Shown here: positions 11,461 through 30,210 of the stretch, one piece after another
How positions within the stretch are numbered: position 1 is the stretch's first letter
Layout: each line of letters begins with the position of its first letter
From: an uncultured Kangiella sp.
GTDB taxonomy: Bacteria > Pseudomonadota > Gammaproteobacteria > Enterobacterales > Kangiellaceae
Direction of reading: 5' to 3'
NCBI GenBank assembly: GCA_964454125.1
Contig: CAYVSL010000009.1
Location: 38,475 to 70,474 of the forward strand
DNA length: 32,000 bases
The notes under the pieces: model-generated
Databases searched by the model: none
What the model saw: only the letters and a program-made list of their open reading frames with translations
What the model was told of the DNA's origin: nothing
Made by a program: the position numbers and the translations under genes

Positions 11461-12936
11461 CTATTTCTCTATGTCAATCCATTCACGCTTATCTGCGGCT
11501 AAAAGCTCATCAGATTCACTCGGCCCCCAACTACCCGCTCGATATAAATAAGGAACGACATCATTTTCTCTCCAATAATCAATAATAGGGTCAACCCAGT
11601 GCCAAGCAGCGCTACCCTCATCTCTATGGATAAACAGTGAAGCGTTTCCAGAAATTGCATCGAGTAATAACCGCTTATATCCAAAACTTTTAAATCCATT
11701 AGATGATTTGGTAAAGTTTAAATCTAACTTAACGGGTTTTAAAACGGTTTTAAGTTGAGTCATATCTTTTGCCATTAACAAAAGCTGCATTCTTTCTTCT
11801 GGTTGTAGTTGGATAATTAACCTGTTAGGTACTAATGGCCCAGCCTCAGCGTCAAATGCATTGTGTGAGACGTTTTTAAATTGAATAACAATTTCCGCAC
11901 TACGTCGTTTAAGTCGTTTGCCTGTTCTCAAATAAAAGGGGACTTGTGCCCAGCGCCAGTTATCTATGTTGGCACGGATCGCAACAAAGGTTTCGGTTTG
12001 ACTTGTTCCAGAACCTAGCTCTTCAAGGTATCCAGGTTCTAATTTTCCTTCAACATTCCCTGCCACATATTGTCCGCGAACCGTATATTTTTTAACATCA
12101 TCGCCGGTAATTGGTCGAAGTGCTTGAAGTACTTTAATTTTTTCTGTGCGAATATTGTCTGCGCCCATTTTGTTGGGTGATTCCATCGCAACCAGTCCAA
12201 GTAATTGAAGTAAATGATTTTGTACCATATCGCGCATTGCGCCGGCGCCATCATAAAACCCCGCTCGTCCTTCCAATCCAACTTGTTCGTTAATGCTGAT
12301 TTGAATATGGTCAATAGATTTAGCATCCCAAAACTGTTCAAACAAAGAATTACTAAAGCGTAATGCTAATAAATTCTGTACGGTTTCTTTACCTAAATAA
12401 TGATCAATACGATAGATTTGTTCTTCCTGAAAGTGATTGGCTATTTTCTGATTGATAGCTTCAGCAGAAACTTGGTCATAACCAATTGGTTTTTCTACAA
12501 CGACACGAGAGTCCGTTGTAATAAGATCCGCTTTGTCTAGGTTTTCACAACAGTCGCCATAAATACTCGGAATAATTGCGAGATAAAAAATTCTGGGGAA
12601 AGAAGCACGCCCCTCAAAGAGGGTGATAAATTCCTTCCAGCCTTTTTGATAGTCTGCAACATCAACGATTGCCGGTTGAATGAGTTTGGTAAATTGCTTA
12701 AAACTCTTGGTGCAAAACTCATCCTGCAACATAAATTTTTTGAATGCCGTTTCGACAATGGATAAAGTATTATCGTAATCTTTTTGTTTTCTTGAACACA
12801 CCAATATTCTAGAGCCTTGTGGAATTTCCTCTTCCATAAATGCGCGATACATAGAGGGCAGCAGTTTCCGCAGCGATAGATCGCCCGTTCCGCCAAATAA
12901 AACTAAATCAAAAGGTTTATCTAATACAGTTGTCAA
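11461..12936 (-). CDS. zwf: glucose-6-phosphate 1-dehydrogenase
   Basis: LFGGTGDLSLRKL dinucleotide-binding motif and the G6PD signature RIDHYLGKE. TTG start with AAGAG ~8 nt upstream; no upstream ATG is available before the edd stop. Confidence 0.95.
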   Translation of the reverse strand: MTTVLDKPFDLVLFGGTGDLSLRKLLPSMYRAFMEEEIPQGSRILVCSRKQKDYDNTLSIVETAFKKFMLQDEFCTKSFKQFTKLIQPAIVDVADYQKGWKEFITLFEGRASFPRIFYLAIIPSIYGDCCENLDKADLITTDSRVVVEKPIGYDQVSAEAINQKIANHFQEEQIYRIDHYLGKETVQNLLALRFSNSLFEQFWDAKSIDHIQISINEQVGLEGRAGFYDGAGAMRDMVQNHLLQLLGLVAMESPNKMGADNIRTEKIKVLQALRPITGDDVKKYTVRGQYVAGNVEGKLEPGYLEELGSGTSQTETFVAIRANIDNWRWAQVPFYLRTGKRLKRRSAEIVIQFKNVSHNAFDAEAGPLVPNRLIIQLQPEERMQLLLMAKDMTQLKTVLKPVKLDLNFTKSSNGFKSFGYKRLLLDAISGNASLFIHRDEGSAAWHWVDPIIDYWRENDVVPYLYRAGSWGPSESDELLAADKREWIDIEK

Positions 12937-12964
12937 AATATTTGTCTCTTAAAATGAATGCTGA

Positions 12965-14833
12965 TTAACCGAAACTAGTTGCACCGTGTTCTGCGCTGGT
13001 CACATTTTTTCTAAAATTCTTAAACAATTCTCTCCCCATACCAACTTGATCTTGGTCGTTGGGCTTTAGAGCTTGTTTACGTTTAGATAAAGTATTTTCT
13101 GTGACCATTAATTCGAGTGTTCCCTGTTTTGCATCTAGTCGAATCATGTCACCATTGGCAATTTTTCCGATCAGTCCATTATCTAACGCTTCCGGTACGA
13201 GATGAATAGCAGCCGGAATTTTTCCAGAAGCGCCTGACATTCGCCCGTCAGTGACTAGTGCGACAGAGAACCCCGCATCTTGTAATGAGCCTAAAATAGG
13301 AGTGAGTTTGTGGAGTTCCGGCATGCCGTTGGCTTGTGGGCCTTGAAAGCGAATGACCGCAATAAAGTCCTTTTGTAATTTGCCTTGCTTAAATAAATTA
13401 ACCAAATCATTTTGATCATCGACGACCACCGCTTGAGCTTCAACCACCAACCGATCTTCAGCCACCGAAGAGGTTTTGATTACTGATCGGCCCAGATTCC
13501 CGGTTAATAATTGCAATCCACCCTGTTGACTAAACGCTTTTTTTGTTGGGCACAAAACAGATTCATCCAAGCTATCCTGAGGAGCCTCTTTCCATTGAAC
13601 CCATTTACTTTCAGATCCAACCTGATGATTCTGTCTGAAAATTTCCGCTTGATTGTTATCAATTAATTCAGGTTCTTCAAAATAATGGCAAAGACCTTTC
13701 CCCATCACGGTATAAACATCTTGATGTAAATATCCTGCATCACTGAGTTCCCTAATTAAAAAGGGCATACCACCAGCGGCCTGAAAATGATTGATGTCGG
13801 CGCTACCATTAGGGTAAATTCTACAAAGCAATGGCACGGTCGCGGAGATATTGGCCATATCTTGCCAATCAATAATGATCCCTGCGGCTCTAGCGATAGC
13901 GATAATATGAATCGCGTGATTAGTCGATCCGCCAGTGGCAAATAAACCGACTAATCCATTAACGATCGTTTTTTCGCTAATAATTTTGTAAAGAGGAACT
14001 TGTTCGGATTTATTTTGCTGTAGATTATTGAGCAATATTTCAACCGCTTTACTCGATAAACAATCCCTTAGTTCTGTACTTGGTGGTACAAAAGAGCTGC
14101 CAGCTAAATGTAACCCCATTATTTCCATTAACATCTGATTGCTATTGGCAGTACCGTAAAAAGTACAGGTTCCCTCACCATGATAGGACGCGCTCTCGGA
14201 GGCTAATAATTCTTTTCTACCCACTTTACCTTCGGCATAGGCTTGTCGGACTTTTGCCTTGGCGTCATTACTTTGTCCGGTCAACATAGGTCCGGCAGGT
14301 AAAAAGATAGTGGGTAAATGAGCAAAACTTAATGCTCCGATAAGTAGTCCAGGAACGATCTTATCGCATACGCCTAAACAAATAATTCCATCAAACATGT
14401 CATGTGATAATGAGACAGCTGTGGCCATTGCAATTAAATCGCGACTAAAAAGTGACAATTCCATGCCAGCCTGTCCTTGGGTCACTCCATCACACATTGC
14501 CGGGACACATCCTGCTAGCTGCGCGGTAGCTCCCAATCGAGATGCGGTGGTTTTAATTAGGTCGGGGTAGTTACCGTAAGGATGATGAGCAGACAGCATA
14601 TCGTTGTATGCACTAATAATTGCTAGGTTTGGCGCGTCTTCTTTGGCTAAGATTGATTTTTCGGTCGAATTGCAAGCGGCCATACCATGAGCCAAATTGC
14701 CGCAACTTAATGCTGAGCGTGTTCGGCCGGTTGTAAGTGCAGCCTCCATTCGCACAACGTATCTCTCTCTTGTTGGCTTACTTTTAGCCATGATAGATTG
14801 GGTGATACGATCAATATTGTCCGTTAATGTCAT
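12965..14833 (-). CDS. edd: phosphogluconate dehydratase
   Basis: Collinear with E. coli Edd by eye: [51 protein letters not shown]. Confidence 0.95.
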
Positions 14834-14934
14834 TTAAATGTCTCTATAATGGCTGTATTGCACTTTTCAAAAGTAGATCTAGTCAAAATTGAAGTAGGAG
14901 CTTTGTTATATCCTATTGTATACGTGACTTTTCT

Positions 14935-14963
14935 ATTAACTCATGTTATGACACCGGTGTCAA
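14935..14963 (-). promoter_or_regulatory. sigma-70-type promoter for edd operon (TTGACA-17-GTTAAT) overlapped by LacI-type operator TGACACCGGTGTCA (14949-14962)
   Basis: The minus strand reads cTTGACAccggtgtcataacatgaGTTAAT. The perfect 14-bp palindrome covers the -35 hexamer and spacer. It lies 116 bp upstream of the edd start. Confidence 0.55.
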
Positions 14964-15139
14964 GAAGCTTTAAATTAGATTTTGACATTGATATAGGGAG
15001 TAACGGTTTAGGTGACGGGTTTCGAATCAGTTGAAATTGAGTTTTATGAGTTAATTCAGAGTGTTAATAGATATGAATTCGATTTGGACAATTAATGGGT
15101 GCTGGATGGTTACTCTTTCCATGACTTCAACTGATTATT

Positions 15140-16168
15140 CTAGGTTAAACCATTCTTTGGTGCTGGTGCGCTAGATTCTCTAACGATTAGCTCGTCCTTA
15201 AATGTCACTATTCGGTTTTCTAATGGTTTGTTTTTAATGGTCCTGATTAACATTCTTGCTGCTTCAAAAGCCATTTCGGTGATTGGTTGCTTTATGGTGG
15301 TTAAAGACGGCCAGATATAACGTGACGCTGGCGCATTGTCAAACCCGGTAACGGTTAGATCATTGGGGATTGAAAGATTTTTTTGGGTCGCGACTTTAAC
15401 AATACCGGCCGCCATGTAGTCATTTGAGGCAAAAATAGCCGTTGGTCGATTTACCAGTGAAAGTAGTTTTCGGGCACAGTTTTCTCCAGATTCAAAAGTA
15501 AAATAGCCTTGTTGAATATAATCGTCCTGAACGGGAAGCCCTGCCTCTTGTAAAGCTTTTTGGTAGCCTAACAATCTCTCATGGGATGCCGCATGGTCAG
15601 GGTGACCCATTATAATAGCAATTTTGGTATGTCCGAGAGAGACCAGATATCGACACATTTCATAAGATGCTTCGGCGTCGTTACTATAAACGCTAGGAGT
15701 GCTTTTAATAGACAGATCGCCACCGATGCGGATAGTCGGGATCCTTTTTTCAGTTAAAAATTCTAATAGTGGCGCCATGTCAGAAAAAGGTGGCGTTAAA
15801 ATAATACCGTCAAGATTAGCACTCATTAAGCCTCTCTCCAGATTCGTTAATAAGTCATCATTTTCATGATCTTCCGGATAAATGATCAAATTATAACCGT
15901 CTATCTTACAACGCTTTAATGCACCGCTTTGAATTTTTGAAACAAAACTATTGCTGGGGCTTGCATAGACTAGTCCGATTAAAAATGACTGGTTACTGGC
16001 AAGCGCTCTAGCTTGAGGATTGGGGCGGTAACCGAGTTCTTCGAAGGCGTTGTGGACTTTAATTTTTGTATCGGGACTAACGTTTGCTTCGTTGTTGAGT
16101 ACTCGAGAAATAGTTTTTTTAGAAACACCTGCGTGTTCGGCGACGTCATTTATAGTAACTTTTTTCAA
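15140..16168 (-). CDS. LacI-family transcriptional regulator (likely repressor of the adjacent ED/sugar-acid operon)
   Basis: N-terminal HTH VTINDVAEHAGVSKKTISRVLNN followed by a periplasmic-binding-protein-like sugar-binding core. Placed immediately upstream of edd on the same strand. Confidence 0.9.
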   Translation of the reverse strand: MKKVTINDVAEHAGVSKKTISRVLNNEANVSPDTKIKVHNAFEELGYRPNPQARALASNQSFLIGLVYASPSNSFVSKIQSGALKRCKIDGYNLIIYPEDHENDDLLTNLERGLMSANLDGIILTPPFSDMAPLLEFLTEKRIPTIRIGGDLSIKSTPSVYSNDAEASYEMCRYLVSLGHTKIAIIMGHPDHAASHERLLGYQKALQEAGLPVQDDYIQQGYFTFESGENCARKLLSLVNRPTAIFASNDYMAAGIVKVATQKNLSIPNDLTVTGFDNAPASRYIWPSLTTIKQPITEMAFEAARMLIRTIKNKPLENRIVTFKDELIVRESSAPAPKNGLT

Positions 16169-16306
16169 TGATTGACCTCTTGCTCTGGCTTTTGCTGATA
16201 TTGATAAAACAAAGCTTGATTACTCTGGGATTTTGGGTTGGTAAAATCAATCAAACTTTCAGCAAGTTTGTAATAAGATTAATCAATTGGTAATCGGTAT
16301 ACCGCC

Positions 16307-16336
16307 ATGATACCGGTGTCATTATGCTAATGTCAA
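16307..16336 (-). promoter_or_regulatory. sigma-70-type promoter of the LacI-family gene (TTGACA-18-TATCAT) overlapped by operator TGATACCGGTGTCA (16308-16321)
   Basis: The minus strand reads TTGACAttagcataatgacaccggTATCAT. The 14-mer is 13/14 identical to the edd-proximal palindrome and covers the spacer and -10. A separate 10-bp palindrome CGGTATACCG lies at 16295-16304. Confidence 0.5.
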
Positions 16337-16505
16337 AATAGTTACGATATTTGTAGGGATGTTTGGGGATAAAATAACGAGGATTTTTGTATGTTAATGT
16401 TATAAGTCAATTTTTCCAATATTTAAAATTGATAAATAGAACAAGCTGTAGCATGATTGGTCGCAAGTAAACTGAGCGGGACTAAACTAAAAGGTTAATA
16501 ATAGG

Positions 16506-17231
16506 ATGAGTGGATTTGATAAAGTAGTGACCAGCTATAAAGAAGCGATGGCAGGTCTAGAGGATGATATGACGGTTATCGCTGGAGGCTTCGGTTTATG
16601 TGGTATTCCAGAAAATTTAATCGCCGAAATTAAACGCAAACAGACTAGGGGTTTGACGTTTGTTTCAAATAATTGCGGAGTGGATAATTTCGGTTTAGGC
16701 GTTCTTTTACCTAACCGCCAGATCAAAAAAATCGTTGCGTCGTATGTCGGTGAAAATGCTGAATTTGAAAGACAAATGATGGCTGGAGAACTAGAGGTTG
16801 AATTGACACCTCAAGGCACATTAGCTGAAAAAATGCGTGCTGGCGGTGCCGGTATCCCTGCTTTTTATACAGCGACCGGGGTTGGGACACCCGTTGCTGA
16901 AGGAAAAGACCAACGCCAGTTTAACGGCCGCGATTATATTCTGGAAGAATCTATCACTGGCGATTTTGCCATCATAAAAGCCTGGAAGGCCGATCGTTAC
17001 GGTAATCTAGTATTTCGACAAACGGCGCGTAATTTTAATCCTATGGCAGCGACCGCTGGCAAAATCACTGTCGTTGAAGTTGAAGAAATTGTTGAACCTG
17101 GTGAACTTAATCCAGATGGAATCCATACTCCTGGGATTTATGTCAATCGTCTGATCCAAGGCACCTTTGAAAAACGTATCGAGCAACGCACCATCCGCCC
17201 CCCACATTCGACTTCGGCAGCAGGAGAATAA
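16506..17231 (+). CDS. scoA: 3-oxoacid CoA-transferase subunit A (class I CoA-transferase alpha)
   Basis: Typical subunit A sequence ([39 protein letters not shown]). Followed 2 nt later by subunit B. Confidence 0.9.
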
Positions 17232-17233
17232 TC

Positions 17234-17890
17234 ATGGCTTTATCCAGAGATCAAATTGCAAAGCGTGTTGCTCAAGAGTTACGAGATGGTTATTACGTCA
17301 ACCTAGGTATTGGTATACCTACTTTAGTGGCAAATTTTATACCCAAAGAAATGGAGGTGATGTTGCAGTCCGAAAATGGACTGTTAGGTATGGGACCATT
17401 TCCAACCGAAGAAGAAATTGATGCAGACTTAATTAATGCAGGCAAACAAACCGTGACCATGGCAACCGGAGCTTCCATTTTCGATTCTGCAGAATCTTTT
17501 GCGATGATCCGTGGTGGTCATGTGGACTTAACGGTATTAGGCGCTTTTGAAGTTGATGTGAATGGTAATATTGCTTCTTATATGATCCCTGGAAAACTAA
17601 TTAAAGGTATGGGCGGTGCGATGGATTTAGTCGCTGGAGCAGACAATATTATCGTGACCATGACTCATGCATCAAAACACGGTCAGTCTAAGCTATTAGC
17701 TAACTGCACTTTACCGCTGACCGGTAAAGGCTGTATAAAGTTGGTACTGACGGATTTGGCGTTTATTAAAATTGAAGACGGTAAATTTCATTTGCTTGAA
17801 AGAGCGCCCGGAGTATCCGTTGAAGAAATTGTTCGATTAACGGATGGAGAACTAGTGGTTCCAGACAAAGTTCCGGAAATGCGGTTTTGA
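17234..17890 (+). CDS. scoB: 3-oxoacid CoA-transferase subunit B
   Basis: Contains the catalytic-glutamate motif QSENGLLGMGP and GGAMDLV, characteristic of beta subunits of class I CoA-transferases. Confidence 0.9.
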   Translation: MALSRDQIAKRVAQELRDGYYVNLGIGIPTLVANFIPKEMEVMLQSENGLLGMGPFPTEEEIDADLINAGKQTVTMATGASIFDSAESFAMIRGGHVDLTVLGAFEVDVNGNIASYMIPGKLIKGMGGAMDLVAGADNIIVTMTHASKHGQSKLLANCTLPLTGKGCIKLVLTDLAFIKIEDGKFHLLERAPGVSVEEIVRLTDGELVVPDKVPEMRF

Positions 17891-19722: not shown

Positions 19723-20559
19723 ATGAACCTCAATATATATATTAAATATCTAGTGTCTTTGTCTACTCTGGCAATCATTTGCCAGTTTGCTATTGCTTCA
19801 CAACCAGTGGTTCAAATCTTCACTAAACAACCCCAACAAGGAAGTATGATTGTTGGCCGTATGTTGGTAGACGGCGATATTTATTTTAATGATAAAAAAT
19901 TACTTTTGACAGAAACCGGTGAATTTGTTTTTGGTGTTGGTCGAGAAGCTCAACATCAAGTTCAATTAATGATCCGCTCAAATCAACAGACAATCAAATA
20001 TCCGATTGAAATTGAAAAACGCCAATGGAAAGTTGAAAAAATCGATGGCCTAGCCAATGAAAAGGTTAATCCTAAATCAAAGGAAACCCTTGTTAGAATA
20101 AAAGCCGAAGGTGAAAAAGTCCGCAAGGCAAGAGCTTCTTCTACCGGACAAAATGCGTTTTTAATGGAATTTATTAGACCTGCTAAAGGTCGAATTTCTG
20201 GTGTGTACGGAAGCCAACGAATATTAAATGGTGAAGCCAAACGACCTCATTTTGGCCTTGATATTGCCAACAAAGTAGGAACAAAAGTGCTGGCTCCAGC
20301 AGACGGTATTATCACGTTGGCTGAAAGTGACCTGTTTTTTTCAGGTGGCACCATTATTATCGATCATGGATTTGGCATTAGCACGACTTACCTACATTTG
20401 AATACTATCGAAGTAAAAGTAGGCCAGGAAATAAAACAAAAACAAAGAATTGCCACCATTGGTTCAACGGGACGCGCGACGGGGCCTCATTTAGACTGGC
20501 GATTAAATTGGTTTTCAACCCGGCTGGACCCTCAATTGCTTATTCTCGAACCTTTCTAA
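19723..20559 (+). CDS. M23-family (LytM-type) metallopeptidase, secreted
   Basis: Signal-peptide-like N-terminus. The HxxxD motif is present (PHFGLDIA). The second motif reads GPHLDW rather than the usual GPHLHF, so the second His of HxH is Asp. Confidence 0.82.
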   Translation: MNLNIYIKYLVSLSTLAIICQFAIASQPVVQIFTKQPQQGSMIVGRMLVDGDIYFNDKKLLLTETGEFVFGVGREAQHQVQLMIRSNQQTIKYPIEIEKRQWKVEKIDGLANEKVNPKSKETLVRIKAEGEKVRKARASSTGQNAFLMEFIRPAKGRISGVYGSQRILNGEAKRPHFGLDIANKVGTKVLAPADGIITLAESDLFFSGGTIIIDHGFGISTTYLHLNTIEVKVGQEIKQKQRIATIGSTGRATGPHLDWRLNWFSTRLDPQLLILEPF

Positions 20560-20581
20560 AGATGTTGAGTGTCAATAGCCT

Positions 20582-22990
20582 ATGAGGTTGTTCGCTAGAC
20601 AGTTTGATTTACTTCTAGTGATCGTTTTTATCTTTTTATTTACTTTTCATTTCGAGTCGATGAATGAATTTAAGTTAAAATTGGTACCGACTCAGGTGTA
20701 CACCTTTAATCTGACCATGACCTATCAAAGTGATGATTCAGATATCAATATTCGCACTTATATCCCCGAAGAAAATGAAAGGCAAAAAATTTTAAACGAG
20801 CAGATTATCAGTAATGGCCTCGAATATCTTGCAACCAATGAACTGAGTGGAAAAAAAGCTAACTGGAGCGGTTTTAGCGCGAGTCAACAGCTGGCTTTTC
20901 GATATGTGCTTTCACTCCAAGCGATTAAGTACAATTTAAGCTCGTCATTAATTATACCCAATCAATATAATCAGGAGTTGTCTCTTTATCTGGCTGCTAC
21001 GGATGCCATTCAAGTTAATCATCCTGAAATTAAAGCTTTGTGGCAACTGATCAAACCGAATGATCGTCGTAATTTACTCAGTGTTTTAAGGACTATATAC
21101 CAATATACCTATTTGCAAATTAAGTCGGCACCTTTTAAAGGCGTGACGGACGCGTTGACCGCACACCGTTTGAATACTGCCAGTTGCAATGGTAAAAGCC
21201 GGTTGTTCATTGCGCTTGCTCGGTTAAATAATATTCCCGCCAGGCTGGTAGGCGGCGTTATCCTCAATGGTATAAACAAAAAAACTTCCCATCAATGGTT
21301 AGAGGTTTATGTACAAAATCAGTGGATCCCATTCGGACCGACCAATGGTAATTTTGCAGAACTCCCCGCTAATTATTTGGAGCTTTATCGCGGCGATGAA
21401 AATCTATTTAGGCATACAGTCGATATTAACTTCGACTATCAGTTTTCCTCTCAACAAAGCTTAGTTGCATCAGCCGTTTATAATCATCAAGAAATAACGG
21501 TTAAAAATAATGTTGATATCACCGGATTATTACTAACTATGGGATTAGAACCGAAAACTATCGGATTATTTTTATTATTTCCTATTTGTACATTGTTGAT
21601 TACATTCTTAAGAAATTTAGTTGGAATAAAAACATTCGGTATTTTTTTGCCTATGCTAATCTCTGCGGCTTGTATTTTTATTGGTTACTTAAAAGGGGTG
21701 GGTGGTTTCGCCTTTATTTTGTTAACTAGTTTTATTGCTTATCATTTTTTGGATAAGTTAAAATTACTCAAAGTGCCACGTTTAGCGGCTATTATTACCA
21801 TCAATACTATTATCTTTGTTCTTGGTTTGTTATTTGTAGGTGCTAGCAATCGATTGGAATTTGGTATGCTTTCGCTTTTTCCTGTGATTATTATTAGTTT
21901 TATTGCAGAAAAAATCCATCGAATAACAGAGGAAAGGGATTGGCAGGAATTATTCAACCGAATTTTTGGAACGATCTTATCTATTACAGGTTGTTATTTA
22001 TTGCTTGCTTCATTTATGTTGCAGGGGTTGTTTTCCTATTACCCTGAGAGCTTTTTATTAGTGCTGGCAGGGCAGATATATATTGGTCGTTGGACAGGGA
22101 TTAGAATTAGTGAAATGTTTCGCTTTAAGAAAATTCTAACCAATTCAGATTATCCCGTTATTGGGATTAATAGCCGTAACAAGGAGTTTATTTACCCGCT
22201 AAATGATAAAGTTCTGCTTGATCTGGCGACTGATAAATTGGCGACTAAGGTTCGTTTGATTGAATATGGTGTGCCGGTACCAAAAACGATTTGTTATGTC
22301 GACAAGCTTTCAAAAATTGATTCTATCACGCAAAATATATTACGCCCGGAAGGTTTTGCTCTTAAACCCAATCAAGGTTCGCAAGGCAATGGCATAATAA
22401 TAATAAAGTCTTATCAAAACGGTATTTTTAATACGGCATCAAACAAACAGCTATCACTCAATGATATAAAAAGGCATTGCCAAGAAATCCTCGCGGGAAG
22501 CTTTTCTCAAACGGGAGAGGAGGATGTAGCTTATTTTGAACCATTGATCCTACAGTCGGAAATGCTACAAAAAATATCTCCTTTTGGTCTTTGCGATATA
22601 CGAGTTATTTTATGCAAAAGTAAAGTTATTAGTGCAATGCTGCGGATGCCCACTCAAAATTCATCAGGCAAGGCCAATTTACACCAAGGCGCCATTGGTA
22701 TAGGCGTCAATATTGAAACAGGAGTTACACAAACCGCTAAAAACAAGAAAAAAAATATTGAAAACCATCCAGATACTCAAGAACCTTTGATCGGTTTTCA
22801 AATTCCTTTTTGGCAAGAAATAATCGATATCTCAAAAGTTTGTCAAGAGGCTGTTCCGTTAGGGTATATTGGTGTTGATATTTGTCTGGACCGCCATCTT
22901 GGTCCATTGGTATTAGAGGTTAACGGCAGACCGGGCATTGAAATTCAGAACATTCAGGAAAGAGGGTTTTATCATGAACTCTCCCAGTGA
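20582..22990 (+). CDS. fusion protein: N-terminal anchor + periplasmic transglutaminase-like domain + 7-TM module + cytoplasmic RimK-related ATP-grasp (alpha-L-glutamate-ligase-like)
   Basis: Transglutaminase-core-like segment ASCNGKSRLFIALARLNNIPARLVGGV...SHQWLEVY...WIPFGPT (aa ~190-255). Seven hydrophobic helices by eye (aa ~325-505). The C-terminal ~280 aa resemble the glutamate-ligase-like ATP-grasp family (VIGINSRNKEFIYPLNDK, LKPNQGSQGNGI, DIRVIL, GKANLHQGA, LEVNGRPG). Confidence 0.8.
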   Translation: MRLFARQFDLLLVIVFIFLFTFHFESMNEFKLKLVPTQVYTFNLTMTYQSDDSDINIRTYIPEENERQKILNEQIISNGLEYLATNELSGKKANWSGFSASQQLAFRYVLSLQAIKYNLSSSLIIPNQYNQELSLYLAATDAIQVNHPEIKALWQLIKPNDRRNLLSVLRTIYQYTYLQIKSAPFKGVTDALTAHRLNTASCNGKSRLFIALARLNNIPARLVGGVILNGINKKTSHQWLEVYVQNQWIPFGPTNGNFAELPANYLELYRGDENLFRHTVDINFDYQFSSQQSLVASAVYNHQEITVKNNVDITGLLLTMGLEPKTIGLFLLFPICTLLITFLRNLVGIKTFGIFLPMLISAACIFIGYLKGVGGFAFILLTSFIAYHFLDKLKLLKVPRLAAIITINTIIFVLGLLFVGASNRLEFGMLSLFPVIIISFIAEKIHRITEERDWQELFNRIFGTILSITGCYLLLASFMLQGLFSYYPESFLLVLAGQIYIGRWTGIRISEMFRFKKILTNSDYPVIGINSRNKEFIYPLNDKVLLDLATDKLATKVRLIEYGVPVPKTICYVDKLSKIDSITQNILRPEGFALKPNQGSQGNGIIIIKSYQNGIFNTASNKQLSLNDIKRHCQEILAGSFSQTGEEDVAYFEPLILQSEMLQKISPFGLCDIRVILCKSKVISAMLRMPTQNSSGKANLHQGAIGIGVNIETGVTQTAKNKKKNIENHPDTQEPLIGFQIPFWQEIIDISKVCQEAVPLGYIGVDICLDRHLGPLVLEVNGRPGIEIQNIQERGFYHELSQ

Positions 22991-24896
22991 AGATCAAAAA
23001 AAAATAAACCCTGATCTACAGCATAAAATGAAACTGGCCAACGCATTACCGATCACCATTATTTTCATTGGACTGGCGACTACCGGTTGGTTGTTTGAAA
23101 GCGAATTGAAAGCAACATATTCCAACACGATCGCGATTAATTTATTGCCCAATAGTAAGGAAAATAACGAAGAAGAAATCGTACAGGAAATAGGTGAGGT
23201 AAATGATAGGACCAATGAGGCTGCTAGTCTACTTTATGAAATCATGATTACAGAGCGCCAAGATAGCAAAAATTCGGGTTATAGTGACTTGCTTTCTCAT
23301 TTATCGGATGCTGAAAAATTGATGGCAAAAACTATAGCGGTTAAGCGATTGAAATCTAATCGATATTATGAGCAAGCTTTAGAGATATTGGTTGGCATGA
23401 CTCAGAAACAACAAGAGTCCCAACAGCTTATTTTTTCTAAGGCATATGTTTTGGCTAAATTAGGTGATCGCTCTGCTGCAATTATAAGTTATGAATATTT
23501 ACTTTCACTACAGAAAAACCACCAAGCCGCGAATATAAACTTGGGATTGTTGTATTTGGCACAAGGCGAGATGAAAAAGGCTGAACAAATTTTTAATCGA
23601 GGTGTTTTGCAAACCGCAGGCCTTAAAAAAGCAAAAAATTATTTTGGTTTAGGTGATGCATATCTGCAACAGAAAAATTATCCTTTAGCGCTTGATAGTT
23701 ACACAAAGGCTATCGAGTACTTTCCAGCTTATGCACCAAGTTGGCGGCGATTAGGTAAGGTTGCAAGGATTATGGATAATCATAAACTGGCTTTAGATGG
23801 TTATCATAACTCCATTTCTCTTGACAAAAACAATATTAAAACTAGGATGGAGTTCGCTGACTACTTAAATAGCCGTTTGCAATACGAAAAGGCTATAGAT
23901 CAACTAAAAAATGCCAAGAGAATTGATCGGGAAAGTTTTTCTATCCGATTGAACTTGGCGTTTAGTTTTTTGCGAGCAGGTAAACCGATCAATGCCAAAA
24001 AACAGCTTAACCTAGCAAAAAGAAATATTCAAAATGAAACGCAAAAAAGACAAAGTGAGGCAATACAAAAATACCTAGTAGAGAGATATTCGGAAACAAT
24101 AAAAATACTGAAGGGAAATATAAAAAAAGGAAGTAATAATGACTTTGAATATTACTTACTCGCGCTCAGTTATACATCACTTAAAAAATATAATGTTGCC
24201 CAAAAATATATTGAAGAGATCGCTTTAGATTCCGATTATTATTATCAAGGCAGATATTTACTAGCCAAATCCCTTCTCGACAATGAACAATTTGCCGAGT
24301 CTGTTGAAGTTTTTCGCACCATTACATCAACAATTGATGATAATTTCATTGTTTTGAACCAGGCTTCCAAAGCAGAGCAGATGTCAAAAAACTATCAACA
24401 AGCTATCGAGCTGGTTAATATAGCGTTGAAGCTAAGGAAAGACCGAAAATTGCTTCTGCGAAGAGCTGATCTTTATTGGGTGTTAGGTAAGCAAAATGCC
24501 GCCATTGAGCAATTGAAGAAAATTGTACAAGATTATCCCCGTTATTTGCGAGCAATTTACCACCTGTCCAGCTATAATCACCAACTAAACAATCGTTCGG
24601 AAGCCATAGACGGTTTCGAAAAGCTGCTGGAAAAGCGTGCAAGCTACGGTGACGCACAATATCAGTTGGCGGTAATTTTCTTTGAACAGTCCGATTTTCT
24701 ATTAAGTCAGGATTTATTGGCCGCTTATTTGCTGAAAAAACCTGACTCCAAACGAACTAGACTGCTATATGCTCGTACGTTTTGTGAAACCGGTCAATCT
24801 CAAGCATGCAAAGAACAGTTAGAATTAGTACTCAAGATAGCGCCTGGTTACCAGCCCGCGCTAGAATTACAACAATCAATTGATTATTTAGATTAA
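22974..24896 (+). CDS. membrane-anchored TPR-repeat protein (~640 aa)
   Basis: The preferred start is the ATG at 22974 (AAGAGGG upstream), which overlaps the preceding gene by 17 nt. There is one N-terminal hydrophobic helix (LPITIIFIGLATTGWLF). Many 34-aa TPR-like repeats follow (e.g. AYVLAKLGDRSAAIISYEYLLSLQKNHQAA, GLGDAYLQQKNYPLALDSYTKAIEYFPAYA). Confidence 0.8.
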   Translation: MNSPSEDQKKINPDLQHKMKLANALPITIIFIGLATTGWLFESELKATYSNTIAINLLPNSKENNEEEIVQEIGEVNDRTNEAASLLYEIMITERQDSKNSGYSDLLSHLSDAEKLMAKTIAVKRLKSNRYYEQALEILVGMTQKQQESQQLIFSKAYVLAKLGDRSAAIISYEYLLSLQKNHQAANINLGLLYLAQGEMKKAEQIFNRGVLQTAGLKKAKNYFGLGDAYLQQKNYPLALDSYTKAIEYFPAYAPSWRRLGKVARIMDNHKLALDGYHNSISLDKNNIKTRMEFADYLNSRLQYEKAIDQLKNAKRIDRESFSIRLNLAFSFLRAGKPINAKKQLNLAKRNIQNETQKRQSEAIQKYLVERYSETIKILKGNIKKGSNNDFEYYLLALSYTSLKKYNVAQKYIEEIALDSDYYYQGRYLLAKSLLDNEQFAESVEVFRTITSTIDDNFIVLNQASKAEQMSKNYQQAIELVNIALKLRKDRKLLLRRADLYWVLGKQNAAIEQLKKIVQDYPRYLRAIYHLSSYNHQLNNRSEAIDGFEKLLEKRASYGDAQYQLAVIFFEQSDFLLSQDLLAAYLLKKPDSKRTRLLYARTFCETGQSQACKEQLELVLKIAPGYQPALELQQSIDYLD

Positions 24897-24947
24897 TTCA
24901 GGAATTAAGTGGACAATTTATGAAGTTACTAAAGGCTACCCCATTAC

Positions 24948-26084
24948 ATGGTTAATTTTCGTAAATTGTTGATTTTGGCTTTAATCGCTAGCCCTTCGGT
25001 TGTTATTGCTTCAGATAACGAATCGGTCAATGCGACAGTTGTGTATGGTTTGGATACTAATCCACACCAGTTGTCCAGCGGACTGATGCCTGTCGAACAA
25101 AAATTTGTTGCGGGCGAATTTAAATTGCGCAGTGATATATATAAAACCTTCTATTTTAGCGCCAAAGCAGAAAAATCGGTTTATTTTGATGACGCCAGAG
25201 CCGATCAACTTAATGCTTCTGCCAATTTGGCATTAAAATCAGATTTTAAGATATTTAAACAAAAGTTTAAATACAAGATTGCTGCGAACTATCGCGCTAA
25301 AGACAAGACCTACGTAAGTAAAACAACGGGGTTAGTGGCAACCTTTGGTGGACGATCGATTGCTGATCGTTATGATTCTACTCAAATTAATTATCTAGGT
25401 GAGCTCTCTTATAAACTTCATAAATTCCTCAAGTTGGATATTTCTTATCAATCCAGAGAAAAAATATACCAAGACTATGATATAGCCGGTCTCAGTAATT
25501 TGGACTACGCTCAGCAATTTGTTCAACTAGGAATGCAGTATAAGGCTTCTGACGTAGGACGGTTTTATCTCAATCTAGCGGTCAAACAGCGCGAATATAT
25601 AGACAAACGGATCAAAGACCTAGAAGGCATAGACATCGCTGCTACTGATTTAATTTATGACTACCATACGGTTAATATTGGTTATATTTTTCGACCCGGC
25701 AAGGATATTCGCTGGAAATTTGCCTACAACTACGAAGATCGTGCCGATAATGGCTTAGGATATTTCAATGCAAACAGTGGATATCTGTCGATCGCTGGCA
25801 AATACCGTTTTGGCAATTACCATTTTTTAAAAAGCCGGGTAAAATATTCACAGTTTTCCTTTGTGAATCAACTCGATCAAGGCGAAGATCCATTAGATGA
25901 AGAAGCCAAAGAAAAACAAGGTGTGTCCTTGATGGTAGGGTATGAATGGGTGGTTGCTACCTTGTTTGATTCAAATTTTGCTGTTTATCTTGAACTTGAG
26001 TATTCCAATTTTGACAATACCAACACCATTTATACCTATGAGAGAAGCATGGCATCAATTGGTATACGTTGGTCAGCTTTTTAA
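24948..26084 (+). CDS. predicted outer-membrane beta-barrel protein
   Basis: Signal peptide MVNFRKLLILALIASPSVVIASD. The sequence shows an alternating aromatic/hydrophilic strand pattern and is rich in Y/F/N/D. The C-terminal ...GIRWSAF ends in Phe, as in OMP beta-signals. Confidence 0.62.
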   Translation: MVNFRKLLILALIASPSVVIASDNESVNATVVYGLDTNPHQLSSGLMPVEQKFVAGEFKLRSDIYKTFYFSAKAEKSVYFDDARADQLNASANLALKSDFKIFKQKFKYKIAANYRAKDKTYVSKTTGLVATFGGRSIADRYDSTQINYLGELSYKLHKFLKLDISYQSREKIYQDYDIAGLSNLDYAQQFVQLGMQYKASDVGRFYLNLAVKQREYIDKRIKDLEGIDIAATDLIYDYHTVNIGYIFRPGKDIRWKFAYNYEDRADNGLGYFNANSGYLSIAGKYRFGNYHFLKSRVKYSQFSFVNQLDQGEDPLDEEAKEKQGVSLMVGYEWVVATLFDSNFAVYLELEYSNFDNTNTIYTYERSMASIGIRWSAF

Positions 26085-26176: not shown

Positions 26177-26253
<77 letters not shown>

Positions 26254-26425: not shown

Positions 26426-26707
26426 ATGAAAGAACTTCACGAATTATTAGACCAAGTAAAAGACTCAAAGACATTCATCATATTTGCGAAAGCATTGCAA
26501 GATGATCGTGAGCCCCATGAAGATAGAGAATCTGATGATGTGGGATTTTGCGGTGACTGGGCGAACAACGATATCTGGGGTTTTTTGGAAGCAGGAATTT
26601 CTTGGGCTGAATCTTCAAAGTTTGGAGAGAACACAGAACAGAATATTGGCGACAATCCATGGAAGCAGTTTGCTACTTTCTTGTATTGTGGAAAAACTTA
26701 TGAATAA
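26426..26707 (+). CDS. small hypothetical protein (93 aa)
   Basis: Intact ORF just downstream of tRNA-Arg. It is acidic and Trp-rich (WANNDIWGFLEAGISWAES...NPWKQFATFLYCGKTYE). No function could be assigned by eye. Confidence 0.5.
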   Translation: MKELHELLDQVKDSKTFIIFAKALQDDREPHEDRESDDVGFCGDWANNDIWGFLEAGISWAESSKFGENTEQNIGDNPWKQFATFLYCGKTYE

Positions 26708-27089
26708 CTTTCCATCTGAAATAGAAATGCAGTCTCTTATCGAAAAAGAAATTTGTTCGATGGATTCTGGACTTAAGAAATATGCTAGCTCAATTCTCAT
26801 TCCATTAAAGAGAAAAAAACTAAAATGGGAGTACGGGAATGATGAGGAGTTTACTTCTTGGATTTTTGCTGACTTTGGAGAGCGTAATGTTGCTGCAGCT
26901 TATTGTTTAGGCGGGCATGGCGAGAATGGGAATTCTTGGGGATTGATATTCACAAACGATGATTCCTTCGGTATGGATGCGACGAAGCCATTAAAGTACA
27001 AAGAATCCTTGATAGGTTTTATCCGTATTTTGGCTTTGATAAGATTAATTCAACTTACACATATATTAACGAGAACTAATCAATTGTAG
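26700..27089 (+). CDS. small hypothetical protein (~129 aa), possibly frameshifted near its 3' end
   Basis: The ATG at 26700 overlaps the previous stop by 8 nt. The upstream part of the 201-aa ORF-track entry overlaps 26426-26707 out of frame and is discounted. After ...SFGMDA another frame (...DEAIKVQRILDRFYPYFGFDKINSTYTYINEN) also reads protein-like, so the true 3' end is uncertain. Confidence 0.4.
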   Translation: MNNFPSEIEMQSLIEKEICSMDSGLKKYASSILIPLKRKKLKWEYGNDEEFTSWIFADFGERNVAAAYCLGGHGENGNSWGLIFTNDDSFGMDATKPLKYKESLIGFIRILALIRLIQLTHILTRTNQL

Positions 27090-27379
27090 ATGACAAAAAA
27101 GACGATCAATAGAACATGTGACCTAAAAAGGGTCGTATTCAAATAGTCGATTTTTAGACATTAAGTGATCATGCAAAACTGTAATATTCATAAAGTGTGG
27201 TCACGTTTTGGTCACAAATGGCAAATCAAAGGATTTAGCAACGCTAAAAATAGACGTTTTTTTGGTCAAAATTCAGACTGAGATCGAGCAATTGTCGATG
27301 TGTAATATTGACCGATAAAAATTAACAATGAAGGAGAAATTGAAGCAAAAACAGAGCTAAAAAAGGAAGAAATTTATAA

Positions 27380-27403
27380 TGGTGCCCGGGGCCGGAGTCA
27401 AAA
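27380..27403 (-). other. tRNA 3'-end-like fragment (att-type scar)
   Basis: The reverse complement TTTTGACT-CCGGC-CCCGGGC-A-CCA parses as T-loop end, T-stem 3' strand, 7-nt acceptor 3' strand, discriminator A and CCA. No 5' half of a tRNA is present. The acceptor GCCCGGG resembles tRNA-Phe-type genes. Confidence 0.5.
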
Positions 27404-27853
27404 TAGCGAATAGATTCAGTAACTTATAGAGCCTCAGTCGTAGTATAGTCGCAATGAAAGTGAGATTGTGCCAGCTCAGCGCCGACAGCACATTGTACAA
27501 TGAAAACGCTTATCAATTCAATGTTGCTTGGGAATCGAACCCGTGTTAACAAGTAACTCTACTTTTTTATCGAATTTTTTATATTTAGCGAATTGATTGA
27601 ATAATTCTAAATAAGCATTTAGCATGTCTTATCATAATAAAATAAGTGCTTTCGACGCAAAGCGGACATCGAGTTTTTATTCTGACCTTAGAATAATTAG
27701 TGAATTTAATACAAGGAGTTCTATTCTAATGAGCCACACTTTCAAAGTATGCCAACGACCTCAGATTCTGCTTAAAATCCTAGCCAATATTGGTATGATG
27801 ACTAGGGTTTGGATGAAAAATATTTGCCGCATCAAAACTGTGAGCACAGAATA

Positions 27854-29371
27854 ATGTTTTTTTCTATTTCCAATAGCGTTCTAACAGGAGTTTTTAGTCA
27901 AGCTTTTCTAACAGAAGACAATTGGGATGATTGGGGTAAATACAGAACTCAATTTTATCTTCGAGTAGCTGATGAATTGGGTGCTGTTCATGATATAGGA
28001 TCAGTAAAGATTGGAAAGGTGGGATTACGGTCAGGTCGGACTGTTGAACCGGAGCAAAGAGCACCGCAGCCGCCCTCACAATTTGATGCATTAAACCCGA
28101 CTTATTTTTCTCTTGGGCAAGGAGAAGATTACTACGAGGCTTTGAACAAACTTAGCGAGGATCTCAGGCTAAGGGTACTGATTGGCCTGCAGGATATTGC
28201 GAACAACTTACAATTACTGGATGCAAATGAAGCAGAAGAGGTCATGGGTGAATCACTCTTGCGGAGTGTTCAGGCGACCAACGTAAGAAATAGATTACAT
28301 CGAATCACTCAAGGGAATGCGGCACTTACACGATTTAGTTTTCAATATACTTTGCCTCATCTAGAAAATATGGCCTCCCCAATTACAACGTTTGATGTTA
28401 TTCCTGAATCTGTACCTCCTACCAATGTGCATGTGTTAATTGGTCGGAACGGCGTAGGCAAGTCTAGGTGTATCCGTGGGCTAGTAGAAGCATTGTTAGA
28501 GAGGGAGGGTGAAGCAAACAATACACCTGGAAGGATAGAACTATTCTCCGATGGAGGTGCAAATGATTGGTCCTTCGCAGGTTTAGTACTAGTTTCATTT
28601 AGTGCGTTTGATGATTTCAATCTGTATCCTCAAGAACAAGATGCTATTGGCGCAAACCAGATAGGATTAAGTAAGTCTGGGAGCACAGGCTTAAAATCTA
28701 TACCAGAGCTTGCAATTGATTTTAGAAAAAGCCTCTTTAATTGCCGGCAGAGCCTCAAGGCAGCCCGGTGGCGTGATGCTGTACATAAACTTGAAAAAGA
28801 TGATTTATTTGCTGAAGCAAATGTAACAACTCTTTTCGATCAGCCGCCAGATGCTAATTGGAGTCAAAGAGCTGAGGCCTTATTCAAACGGCTCAGCTCC
28901 GGACACGCAATAATTTTATTAACGATTACTCGTTTGGTTGAGTTGGTTGATGAAAAGACACTGGTATTGCTTGATGAACCGGAAGGTCATTTACATCCTC
29001 CATTGCTGGCAGCTTTCATTCGGGCTCTGTCAGATTTGTTGGTAAAAAGAAACGGCGTGGCAATTATTGCAACTCATTCACCTGTCGTTTTACAAGAAGT
29101 GCCCCAAACTTGCGCTTGGAAACTTCGACGTAGTCGAGATGTATCTGTAGTGGAAAGGCCAAGCCTCGAGACTTTTGGAGAAAATATAGGGCTATTAACA
29201 CGGGAAGTTTTTGGTTTAGAGGTTACACATGCAGGATTTCATGATCTTCTCAAAGAGGCTGTTGAAGCAAATATGAGTTTTAATAAAGTCCTTCAGCATT
29301 TTAATGGGCAGCTCGGTATGGAGGCACAGGCAATCGTGCAGGCTCTCATCTCTCTGCGAGATCAGGTATAG
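27854..29371 (+). CDS. ABC/SMC-like ATPase (DEPExHLHP class, as in OLD/GajA/AriA/PtuA) with a ~190-aa uncharacterised N-terminal domain
   Basis: Walker A GRNGVGKS (nt 28442-28465), signature-like LSSGH (28892-28906), Walker B LVLLDEPEGHLHP (from 28961) and H-loop IATHSP. The ATG at 27854 is preferred over the TTG at 27809 listed in the ORF track, but neither has a strong Shine-Dalgarno. Confidence 0.8.
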   Translation: MFFSISNSVLTGVFSQAFLTEDNWDDWGKYRTQFYLRVADELGAVHDIGSVKIGKVGLRSGRTVEPEQRAPQPPSQFDALNPTYFSLGQGEDYYEALNKLSEDLRLRVLIGLQDIANNLQLLDANEAEEVMGESLLRSVQATNVRNRLHRITQGNAALTRFSFQYTLPHLENMASPITTFDVIPESVPPTNVHVLIGRNGVGKSRCIRGLVEALLEREGEANNTPGRIELFSDGGANDWSFAGLVLVSFSAFDDFNLYPQEQDAIGANQIGLSKSGSTGLKSIPELAIDFRKSLFNCRQSLKAARWRDAVHKLEKDDLFAEANVTTLFDQPPDANWSQRAEALFKRLSSGHAIILLTITRLVELVDEKTLVLLDEPEGHLHPPLLAAFIRALSDLLVKRNGVAIIATHSPVVLQEVPQTCAWKLRRSRDVSVVERPSLETFGENIGLLTREVFGLEVTHAGFHDLLKEAVEANMSFNKVLQHFNGQLGMEAQAIVQALISLRDQV

Positions 29372-29373
29372 TT

Positions 29374-30210
29374 ATGCGTCGGTTGCCTAAACCTGAAATA
29401 TCTGCAGGCATAGTTTTTAATCTATGCATTGATAGTATTACGGATCCAAACCTCAAAATGAGATTGTGTCGCTCACGTCATATTGTTGAAGCCGCTGAAG
29501 CAGTGTATATCACACAGGCTGAACTCACTGCATTGCATTCAATTCCTGATACAAACGGAATTGGCGGTATTGTTACAAACGCGGAAATGAAGCGTGTATA
29601 CAATGGGACGTTCGTTCGCAGTGTCAGTACTCGTGACATATATGGAGCACTAAAATCAGCACCTGAGAACGACATTTGCCCTCTATGCTCCCAAAGAGCA
29701 GTCAGTCAACTGGATCATTATCTACCTAAATCGCGTCATTCATCGCTTGTTGTGACGCCAGTTAACCTTGTGCCTGCTTGTGGAGAGTGTAATAAAGTAA
29801 AGCTAGATTTGCAGGTTACGCAGGCAGAAGACCAGACTTTTCACCCGTACTTCGAGGATGCGGATGATGCCCGATGGCTTTATGCAAGAGTCGAACAGTC
29901 AAATGGCGGAGCACTTGTATTTTTTGCGCAGCCTCCAAATGAGTGGAGTAACATCAAAAAGCAAAGAATCGCAGTTCATTTTAAGACCTACAAATTGGCC
30001 AATCTTTACGCCTCTCATTCGGCTGTTGAACTCAAGGATATGCAGTTTGGGTTGAGACAAATGAAATTGCGAAACTCTCCTCAAGAGATCAGTAATCATT
30101 TGCGTAAGGTAGCTGAGAGTCGTGCAGCCGCACATGATAACTCTTGGAGAAGGGCTGCCTACGAAGCACTCGCAGATTCTGTTTGGTTTTGTGAAGGGGG
30201 TTTCGACTAA
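29374..30210 (+). CDS. HNH endonuclease-domain protein (278 aa), coupled to the upstream ATPase
   Basis: Zinc-finger HNH core CPLCSQRAVSQLDHYLPKS...VNLVPACGECNKVK (nt 29677-29796). The start is 2 nt after the ATPase stop codon. Confidence 0.85.
   Translation: MRRLPKPEISAGIVFNLCIDSITDPNLKMRLCRSRHIVEAAEAVYITQAELTALHSIPDTNGIGGIVTNAEMKRVYNGTFVRSVSTRDIYGALKSAPENDICPLCSQRAVSQLDHYLPKSRHSSLVVTPVNLVPACGECNKVKLDLQVTQAEDQTFHPYFEDADDARWLYARVEQSNGGALVFFAQPPNEWSNIKKQRIAVHFKTYKLANLYASHSAVELKDMQFGLRQMKLRNSPQEISNHLRKVAESRAAAHDNSWRRAAYEALADSVWFCEGGFD

Follow-up and report, generated by a model that had tools for sequence, protein, structure and literature searches.

A three-gene variant of the Rlo system, predicted to span the envelope, in an uncultured Kangiella and in other bacterial phyla

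A 32,000-nucleotide (nt) stretch of DNA from an uncultured Kangiella species (GenBank assembly GCA_964454125.1, contig CAYVSL010000009.1, positions 38,475 to 70,474; this whole stretch is called the window below) carries a gene for a protein of 802 amino acids (aa) in which a transglutaminase-like domain, a seven-helix membrane module and a RimK-like ATP-grasp ligase are joined, followed by genes for a tetratricopeptide-repeat (TPR) protein and an outer-membrane (OM) beta-barrel. The fusion protein, the TPR protein and the barrel constitute a conserved three-gene core, a variant of the Rlo system of Pseudomonas aeruginosa that is predicted to span the envelope. In the surveyed loci, the set of ligase, TPR protein and barrel is mutually exclusive with the protease RloA and with RloB proteins that lack a Cys/His pair, which is retained throughout the clade to which the window belongs. 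It is possible that this variant exports or displays the product of its ligase.

The corresponding split system is the RloB/RloC pair encoded by the rloABC operon of P. aeruginosa (Lormand et al., mBio 2025, PMC12239564). RloA, a retropepsin-like protease that is secreted, has been shown to cleave polyglutamate in vitro, RloB is a seven-transmembrane (7TM) protein described as an 'inactive transglutaminase', and RloC is an ATP-grasp protein with 24% identity to RimK (PMC12239564). Deletion of rloB or rloC suppresses the hypo-osmotic lethality of a triple rloA mutant and partly rescues the antibiotic, biofilm and cell-shape defects, and the residues predicted to coordinate glutamate are required for complementation in vivo (PMC12239564). 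In addition, a Shewanella mutant in a 7TM-transglutaminase gene was found to overproduce membrane vesicles (PMC12096838). A first-pass annotation of the window, made from the sequence, had stated that no function was known for the split proteins; in view of the genetic phenotypes of rloABC and the in vitro activity of RloA (PMC12239564), that statement is outdated.

Two clades of RloB/RloC-type loci

Eighty loci were taken from a scan of GTDB species genomes, and their open reading frames (ORFs) were called and searched with the window proteins and with iterated hidden Markov models (HMMs). The score of the RloB part (>200 bits versus about 100 bits) separated two clades. Clade A, which is of the window type, comprises 29 loci (a count that, here and below, does not include the window itself), with the two parts fused in 8 and split in 21. 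Fused forms occur in Kangiella, Henriciella and gammaproteobacterial metagenome-assembled genomes (MAGs), and split forms in Gamma-, Beta- and Zetaproteobacteria, Myxococcota, Bdellovibrionota, Campylobacterota, Bacteroidota, Fibrobacterota and Spirochaetota; the clade as a whole also includes Alphaproteobacteria. Clade B, the classical Rlo type, consists of 51 split loci from Pseudomonas, Vibrio, Aeromonas, Photobacterium and others. The scores of the ATP-grasp parts are similar for the two clades (185-228 bits), and in a neighbor-joining tree of this part, which is rough and was used unrooted, clade B is monophyletic and the fused forms are monophyletic inside clade A.

The two clades differ in what accompanies the ligase. 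A TPR gene lies directly 3' of the ligase gene in 27 of the 29 clade-A loci and in none of the 51 classical Rlo loci, and a homologue of the window barrel is present in 18 of the 29 clade-A loci and in none of the 51 clade-B loci. Conversely, an RloA-like retropepsin, searched for with an RloA HMM, is encoded nearby at 45 of the 51 clade-B loci, at none of the 29 clade-A loci, and nowhere in the entire 32-kb window when this is translated in all six frames, so that the absence of the usual small protease, which the first-pass annotation had noticed, is confirmed. The same annotation had staked its proposal beforehand on the conservation of the TPR and barrel genes beside the ligase, and this conservation (27 and 18 of 29 loci, respectively) was indeed found, in many phyla; of the co-variation for which it had suggested looking, the TPR and barrel genes recur, whereas the M23 peptidase gene that precedes the fusion gene in the window does so only at the locus of the closest genome relative. 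Its description of the 802-aa protein as a fusion of two known proteins holds insofar as there is one polypeptide here, but the Cys/His pair is kept, unlike in RloB, and split forms share the same partners. Since TPR and barrel genes also accompany split versions, the fusion is not the defining feature of the clade. A search of the literature, which covered work other than the original comparative-genomics account of 2009, found no description of a TPR/barrel-linked, Cys/His-retaining clade devoid of RloA.

A Cys-His pair retained in the periplasmic domain

The second difference between the clades lies in the transglutaminase-like domain. Cys202 (in the motif ASCNGK, nt 21185-21187) and His237 (in TSHQW, nt 21290-21292) are kept in the window protein and at all 29 clade-A loci, whereas both are absent from 51 of 51 classical RloB proteins. 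The domain superposes end to end on 3isr, a putative transglutaminase-like Cys protease (Foldseek E 1.9e-14, target TM 0.71), and in this alignment the Cys and His of 3isr match Cys202 and His237, while Gly252 stands opposite its Asp. This third position of the triad (nt 21335-21337) is Gly in the window protein and its nearest relatives; across clade A it is mostly Asp, and Cys in some, and Asn255 close by is invariant. Judged from these residues, what differs between the clades is the predicted chemistry of the periplasmic domain. The residues that are common to both clades are found mainly in the 7TM module and the juxtamembrane stretch between it and the ligase, and from this concentration the membrane module and the ligase would be the common core of both.

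Architecture and predicted topology of the fusion protein

The RloB-RloC-type fusion ORF (positions 20582-22990, + strand, 802 aa) encodes four successive parts, all on the + strand. An N-terminal membrane anchor (aa 8-23, 20603-20650), with the N-terminus predicted to be inside, is a hydrophobic helix in the structural model and is kept in homologues. It is followed by the transglutaminase-like/papain-fold domain (aa ~35-300, 20684-21481), which is predicted to be periplasmic and was recognized by the Pfam model Transglut_core (aa 168-253, 52.9 bits, E 5e-14) and by the Foldseek match to 3isr, by the seven-helix membrane module with its juxtamembrane motif (aa ~324-502, 21551-22087), for which 7TM_transglut (PF14402) gives 120.3 bits over aa 318-518 (cutoff 25, E 1e-34), and by the RimK-like ATP-grasp ligase domain, which is predicted to be cytoplasmic (aa ~531-802, 22172-22987) and for which ATPgrasp_ST (PF14397) gives 223.8 bits over aa 532-801 (cutoff 31.4, E 3e-66). 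Other family models match below their cutoffs: the NCBIfam model TIGR02291 (rimK_rel_E_lig, 'alpha-L-glutamate ligase-like') scores 257 bits against model positions 11-286 of 317, under its cutoff of 314; the NCBIfam RloB model NF052267 scores 105 bits (cutoff 900); and the Pfam model Transglut_i_TM (PF14400) scores 18 bits (cutoff 25).

An AlphaFold2 model, calculated from an alignment of 19 sequences with a predicted local distance difference test (pLDDT) of 81.4, contains a helix (8-23), an alpha/beta domain (37-300), a set of seven helices (between 324 and 502) and an ATP-grasp fold (531-785); anchor residues 11-20 have a pLDDT of about 90, and the linker 517-533 is of low confidence. The family matches and the model thus agree with the domain architecture given by the first-pass annotation. 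One anchor and seven helices would leave the transglutaminase-like domain in the periplasm and the ATP-grasp domain in the cytoplasm, as had also been proposed, and the distribution of charges fits this predicted topology, the N-terminus being basic and the K/R-rich loops at ~386-400 and ~444-460 and the stretch after the seventh helix lying on the predicted cytoplasmic side. It should be noted that the public gene call of the contig begins the fusion at Met27 (776 aa), whereby the anchor (20582-20659), the very one needed for exporting the transglutaminase-like domain, is lost; as the N-terminal hydrophobic helix is conserved in homologues, the 802-aa start is preferred. The database contains more than 450 homologues of the fusion protein, and each of the 120 best-matching ones is a fusion of ~800 aa; the sources are Kangiella, Aliikangiella, Cycloclasticus, Cellvibrionaceae, Henriciella and others.

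With Foldseek, the C-terminal domain matched RimK (5zk6, 5zct), LysX/ArgX, Ddl and cyanophycin synthetase, in agreement with profile searches of the PDB, and its best PDB sequence match is RimK 7qys (E 2.6e-9). K595, the GSQGNG loop, D766, E779, N781 and the GKANLHQG motif are invariant in the alignment; with its Mg/ATP-site residues and RimK-type motifs unchanged, the domain is predicted to be competent as a ligase. The conserved juxtamembrane motif that connects it to the membrane module consists of G502..G506, R508, E511, R514 and F515.

The TPR protein and the outer-membrane barrel

The TPR protein ORF (22974-24896, + strand, 640 aa counted from the ATG) overlaps the fusion ORF. Its longest reading frame would begin with a TTG at 22938, and the ATG at 22974 is preceded by a ribosome-binding site, AAGAGGG. 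In at least 12 clade-A loci the start of the TPR gene overlaps the stop of the ligase gene by 4 nt, and most proteins encoded by the clade-A TPR genes that overlap the ligase stop have an N-terminal hydrophobic helix. The TPR gene is predicted from this arrangement to be translationally coupled to the ligase gene. The window protein is covered by many TPR Pfam families over aa ~100-630, which by length corresponds to roughly 15 repeats, and has a hydrophobic segment at aa 23-41 (19-21 residues) without a lipobox; it is thus predicted to be periplasmic and anchored in the inner membrane. Its PDB matches are designed or generic TPR proteins, OGT, MamA and PilF only, so that an assignment to AlgK, PelB, BcsC or PgaA by sequence failed. 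The long TPR proteins of three loci (L048, L071 and L075) were considered as TPR-barrel fusions, but are TPR throughout.

The beta-barrel ORF (24948-26084, + strand, 378 aa) encodes a protein with a signal peptide and a C-terminal Phe, and the AlphaFold2 model (pLDDT 86.4) has 16 beta-strands behind a signal-like helix. A Pfam scan assigned no family to the window barrel, and gave generic outer-membrane protein matches alone, in 12 of 39 family members. Foldseek searches of the PDB likewise returned generic OM barrels only (TMq at most 0.48), with AlgE and PelB level with OmpG, CymA and CdiB, and with FadL and TodX as the best E-values at TM-scores of 0.36-0.39; the placement of the barrel in a known porin family was therefore abandoned, and a polymer porin is neither favored nor excluded by these matches. 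The lumen of the barrel is probably basic, as K and R outnumber D and E there (31 versus 12) by strand parity, a heuristic assignment, in a modelled protein whose mature form has a net charge of 0.

The barrel family is small, with 363 representatives at E <=1e-3 among 1.84 billion proteins, nearly all of them stand-alone proteins of 370-400 aa. At 16 of the 18 clade-A loci that have it, the barrel gene lies 3' of the TPR gene; at the other two, both from Flavobacteriia, it directly follows the ligase gene and a TPR gene is missing. When the search was reversed and the genomic context of six distant barrel representatives was examined, one of them (P0200) was again found to follow a fused ligase gene and a TPR gene. 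Two others (L085, 924-6532; L088, 1-4926) directly follow AlgX/AlgF/AlgX-type O-acetylation genes with a 4-nt overlap, and in L085 these are preceded by an MBOAT (AlgI-type) gene, with a ManC-like gene nearby. The presence of barrel members in AlgI/AlgX/AlgF-type operons links the family to the secretion of anionic polymers.

Some clade-A loci have additional genes. In three loci from Myxococcota an extra gene lies between the TPR and barrel genes (L016, 12264-13418; L057, 12231-13469; L014, 12299-13447); it encodes a BamD/YfiO-like TPR lipoprotein in L016 and L057, and the L014 gene occupies the same position. A locus from Sulfurimonadaceae (L028, 7965-17256) contains, in this order, genes for a transglutaminase-7TM protein, an ATP-grasp protein, a TPR protein, a second transglutaminase-7TM protein, a second TPR protein and a barrel. 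In one of the Henriciella-type loci (L006), a phage-type integrase gene comes after the TPR gene.

The M23 peptidase gene and the surroundings of the cluster

The ORF that precedes the fusion gene (19723-20559, + strand, 278 aa) is predicted to encode a secreted Pgp3/MepM-like metallopeptidase (Peptidase_M23, 94.5 bits; NCBIfam Pgp3, 143 bits; best PDB match 2hsi, E 3.6e-32). The HxxxD motif is present (HFGLD), but in the window protein and in the orthologue of the closest relative the HxH motif reads H-L-D ('GPHLDW'), whereas structures close to it carry 'GPHMHW' or 'GPHLHF'. The second His of HxH, here replaced by Asp, is a zinc ligand in LytM-type enzymes, and the activity or the metal binding of the protein may thus be altered. 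In a phmmer survey of the 80 loci, an M23 gene adjoins the ligase gene only in the closest genome relative of the window (L001); one further locus (L032) has an M23 gene 6 kb off on the other strand. The peptidase is therefore ruled out as a core component, and its inclusion in the cluster by the first-pass annotation is not upheld by the comparative data; it is a lineage-specific neighbor, which here may be cotranscribed given the gap of 22 nt.

The closest relative is itself an uncultured Kangiella, whose fusion protein is 69% identical and in which the order gltX-M23-fusion-TPR-barrel is also found. In the window, the four genes (19723-26084) lie on one strand with a gap of 22 nt, an overlap of 17 nt and a gap of 51 nt, and the ORF coordinates reproduce the packing that had been noted at first. 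A scan of the cluster gave promoter- and terminator-like matches at chance level (23 versus 26.7 and 11 versus 7.2, respectively), so that particular transcription units are neither supported nor excluded.

The window lies within a metagenome contig of 151 kb (ENA ERZ27262693). On the 5' side, the cluster is flanked by gltX and a reverse-strand tRNA-Val. Further upstream, positions 6974-17890 contain the Entner-Doudoroff and glycolysis genes pgi, gap, pgl, zwf and edd on the reverse strand with a LacI-family regulator, and then two CoA-transferase subunit genes (Pfam CoA_trans, seen on the parent contig) and tRNA-Val; these are ordinary housekeeping genes with no relation to the cluster. On the 3' side, a tRNA-Arg(CCT) found by ARAGORN (26177-26253, + strand) delimits the cluster and is also the point at which a defense island, starting straight after it, is attached (26426-30210 in the window; 11479-20800 in L081). 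This island contains a DUF7660 protein (26426-26707) and the PADLOC candidate defense genes PDC-M01A (27809-29371, 633 bits, also PtuA-like) and PDC-M01B (29374-30210, 322 bits), which form a pair; beyond these, the parent contig carries integrase fragments and the toxin-antitoxin genes PhdYeFM and ParE.

Discussion

The reading that we favor, although with somewhat less than even confidence, is that the clade-A loci encode an Rlo variant in which an acidic peptide made by the ligase is exported or displayed instead of being degraded, along a route from the ligase through the 7TM module, the Cys/His domain and the TPR protein to the barrel. An acidic peptide or tail rich in glutamate would be assembled by the ATP-grasp domain at the expense of ATP, as RimK and the polyglutamate cleavage by RloA suggest by analogy. 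The 7TM module would carry this peptide to the periplasm or present it there, the Cys-His domain would process it by cleavage or transfer and thereby take the place of RloA, the TPR protein would guide it to the barrel, and the barrel with its presumably basic lumen would release it from the cell or display it outside. Classical and clade-A loci would then represent two solutions to one problem, the presence of an RloBC product in the periplasm, which RloA would degrade in the former and which would be exported in the latter. The harm that RloBC cause when RloA is missing fits a harmful product that the cell must clear from the periplasm, and the either/or pattern of RloA suggests that degradation and export are alternative ways of clearing it.

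A bolder version of this proposal would see in clade A a hitherto unrecognized Gram-negative trans-envelope path for a non-ribosomal homopolypeptide made by an ATP-grasp enzyme, for example poly-alpha-glutamate. The chain would be made by a ligase-translocase whose periplasmic Cys-His domain serves for processing, the TPR protein with its inner-membrane anchor would bridge the periplasm, and the product would leave through a dedicated, anion-selective 16-stranded porin; rloABC would be a derived system that lost export and recruited a protease by which the product is destroyed in the periplasm. In this specific form the proposal appears rather unlikely.

Several points weigh against an export route. 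The glutamate specificity of RloC-type ligases is deduced from distant homology to RimK only, and translocation by the 7TM module, like export of a polyglutamate-like product, is an assumption of the proposal that we infer from the arrangement of the parts. With Gly at the third triad position of the window protein, and Asp or Cys in relatives, the periplasmic domain could be a binding module or could have an altered chemistry. The Foldseek matches of the modelled barrel do not separate polymer porins from FadL, OmpG and general porins, the charge of its lumen comes from a strand-parity heuristic and not from a structural calculation, and among the best 150 barrel representatives there is none of the TPR-barrel fusions of ~1000 aa. 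The three remaining distant barrel relatives whose context was sampled have unrelated neighbors. Moreover, clade-A loci with a TPR gene and without an adjacent barrel homologue include those of Kangiella spongicola (L002), of Henriciella type (L004-L007), and of MAGs from Myxococcales (L030), Spirochaetaceae (L048) and Fibrobacterota (L075).

The absence of the barrel from these loci would be easier to understand if the envelope itself were the destination of the product, and modification of the envelope is the main rival of export. The Cys-His domain would attach the ligase product to a target in the periplasm, for instance the stem peptides of peptidoglycan or a periplasmic or OM protein, and the TPR protein and the barrel would be a scaffold or the target rather than a conduit. 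Enzymes of the transglutaminase fold carry out acyl transfer as well as hydrolysis, and the Cys-His pair is invariant in clade A. The M23 peptidoglycan peptidase 22 nt upstream of the fusion gene, adjacent in the closest relative too, would make functional sense in this lineage, and the rlo mutants of P. aeruginosa have cell-shape and beta-lactam phenotypes for which a link to peptidoglycan has been discussed (PMC12239564). However, the M23 gene is not conserved with the module beyond that closest relative, a barrel with a basic lumen and with relatives in polysaccharide acetylation operons is better suited to passage than to anchoring, and export, as another form of clearance, gives a simpler account of the mutual exclusivity with a degrading RloA. 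Thus, modification of the envelope is considered unlikely, though it remains the strongest competitor; signaling, import and chance adjacency are less likely still.

Seven-helix modules with extracytoplasmic domains are often receptors in bacteria, and the 7TM module with its periplasmic domain might accordingly sense a signal and control an ATP-grasp enzyme that modifies a cytoplasmic target, as RimK does with RpsF, with the TPR protein and the barrel only delivering or sensing an external ligand. The residues shared by both clades do cluster in the 7TM module and the juxtamembrane region that joins the ligase, and insertions in PA1766-PA1768 were among the suppressors of an exopolysaccharide-overproducing colony phenotype in a screen of P. 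aeruginosa flagellar mutants (PMC7314104). Nevertheless, a domain that serves purely as a sensor would not be expected to keep a catalytic-type Cys-His pair unchanged over many phyla, receptors do not typically come with a translationally coupled TPR protein and a dedicated barrel, and the classical RloA is a secreted enzyme that cuts polyglutamate, which puts the substrate in question on the periplasmic side. A sensory role is therefore improbable.

The direction of transport might also be the reverse: an external peptide or polymer would enter by way of the barrel and the TPR protein and be cleaved by the Cys-His domain, the 7TM module would import the fragments, and the ATP-grasp domain would join them again or trap them. 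Hydrolases are common among papain-fold domains, and the best Foldseek E-values of the barrel belong to the uptake channels FadL and TodX; these matches are generic, however, with low TM-scores (0.36-0.39), and FadL and TodX are described as 14-stranded barrels with a plug domain, whereas 16 strands are modelled for the window barrel. Import and salvage are highly improbable, also because the suppression genetics of P. aeruginosa indicate that RloBC generate a harmful species and do not consume one. The idea that the fusion protein alone is a functional unit beside unrelated neighbors can draw on the chance-level promoter and terminator matches, by which internal transcription units are neither supported nor excluded, but it is barely credible, as it is contradicted by an order of ligase, TPR and barrel genes with overlapping stop and start that is kept in phyla sharing no other synteny, and by the barrel-based reciprocal search that leads back to the same neighborhood.

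In P. aeruginosa, the rlo operon touches osmotic tolerance, antibiotic susceptibility, biofilm formation and cell shape, and the window variant offers three leads on the product of RloB and RloC, i.e., catalytic-type residues in the periplasm, a partner that spans the periplasm, and a pore in the OM. Taken together with the either/or distribution relative to RloA, these leads make for the prediction that the product crosses the inner membrane and is then either degraded or exported. If this were confirmed, a route for the export of peptide polymers would be added to the known envelope secretion systems, and a function would be assigned to a barrel family for which there is no Pfam model. The module is not confined to a single lineage, being present in Bacteroidota, Myxococcota and Campylobacterota, among others.

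Comparison with known systems

The nearest system is rloABC, with which the window shares the consecutive arrangement of a 7TM protein with a periplasmic transglutaminase fold (RloB) and a RimK-related ATP-grasp protein (RloC), as well as the 7TM and juxtamembrane motifs. It differs in that RloB and RloC are one polypeptide, the Cys and His are kept, TPR and barrel genes are added, and the RloA retropepsin is missing from the locus, and in that the clade of the window reaches far beyond Proteobacteria. RimK and RimB resemble it in the ATP-grasp fold and motifs and in the pairing of a ligase with a processing activity. However, RimK, a poly-alpha-L-glutamate ligase, is soluble and works in the cytoplasm, with ribosomal protein S6 as its target, whereas the window ligase is tethered to a membrane module with envelope partners, and a protease of the RimB or RloA type (RimB being an aspartic protease) is not encoded at the window locus. 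The periplasmic domain by itself shares its fold and its Cys and His with 3isr, a PF01841-type peptidase of Cytophaga hutchinsonii, which is a soluble, stand-alone protein with a full Cys-His-Asp triad, whereas the window domain has Gly in place of Asp and is fused to the 7TM module and the ligase.

Membrane-associated, ATP-dependent synthesis of a glutamate polymer, its export, and its extracytoplasmic processing or anchoring are known from PgsBCA/CapBCA and CapD of Bacillus. There, PgsB is Mur-ligase-like, CapD is a gamma-glutamyltranspeptidase, the envelope is Gram-positive and the linkage is gamma. The folds are unrelated to those of the window proteins, these systems have no TPR or OM part, and a RimK-like enzyme would be expected to give an alpha linkage.

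The analogy with AlgK/AlgE, PelB, BcsC and PgaA, which the first-pass annotation had drawn, stands as far as the architecture is concerned: in all of these systems, as in the window, a periplasmic TPR array and an OM barrel are downstream of a polymer-making enzyme of the inner membrane. It does not extend to the components. The polymerizing enzyme here is an ATP-grasp peptide ligase, a cyclic di-GMP receptor is lacking, and no glycosyltransferase synthase was found, either among the annotated window genes or within the core of the loci surveyed; the TPR protein, with its inner-membrane anchor, is made separately from the barrel and is not a lipoprotein; and the matches of the barrel are generic, without a specific sequence or fold match to AlgE or PelB (TMq 0.48). 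The barrels of PelB, BcsC and PgaA have been described with 16 strands and that of AlgE with 18, and the lumen of AlgE has been described as basic. The lumen of the window barrel is predicted to be basic as well, and relatives of this barrel are found in AlgI/AlgX/AlgF-type operons. On the bolder version of the export reading, the clade-A pathway would be a peptide counterpart of synthase-dependent polysaccharide secretion.

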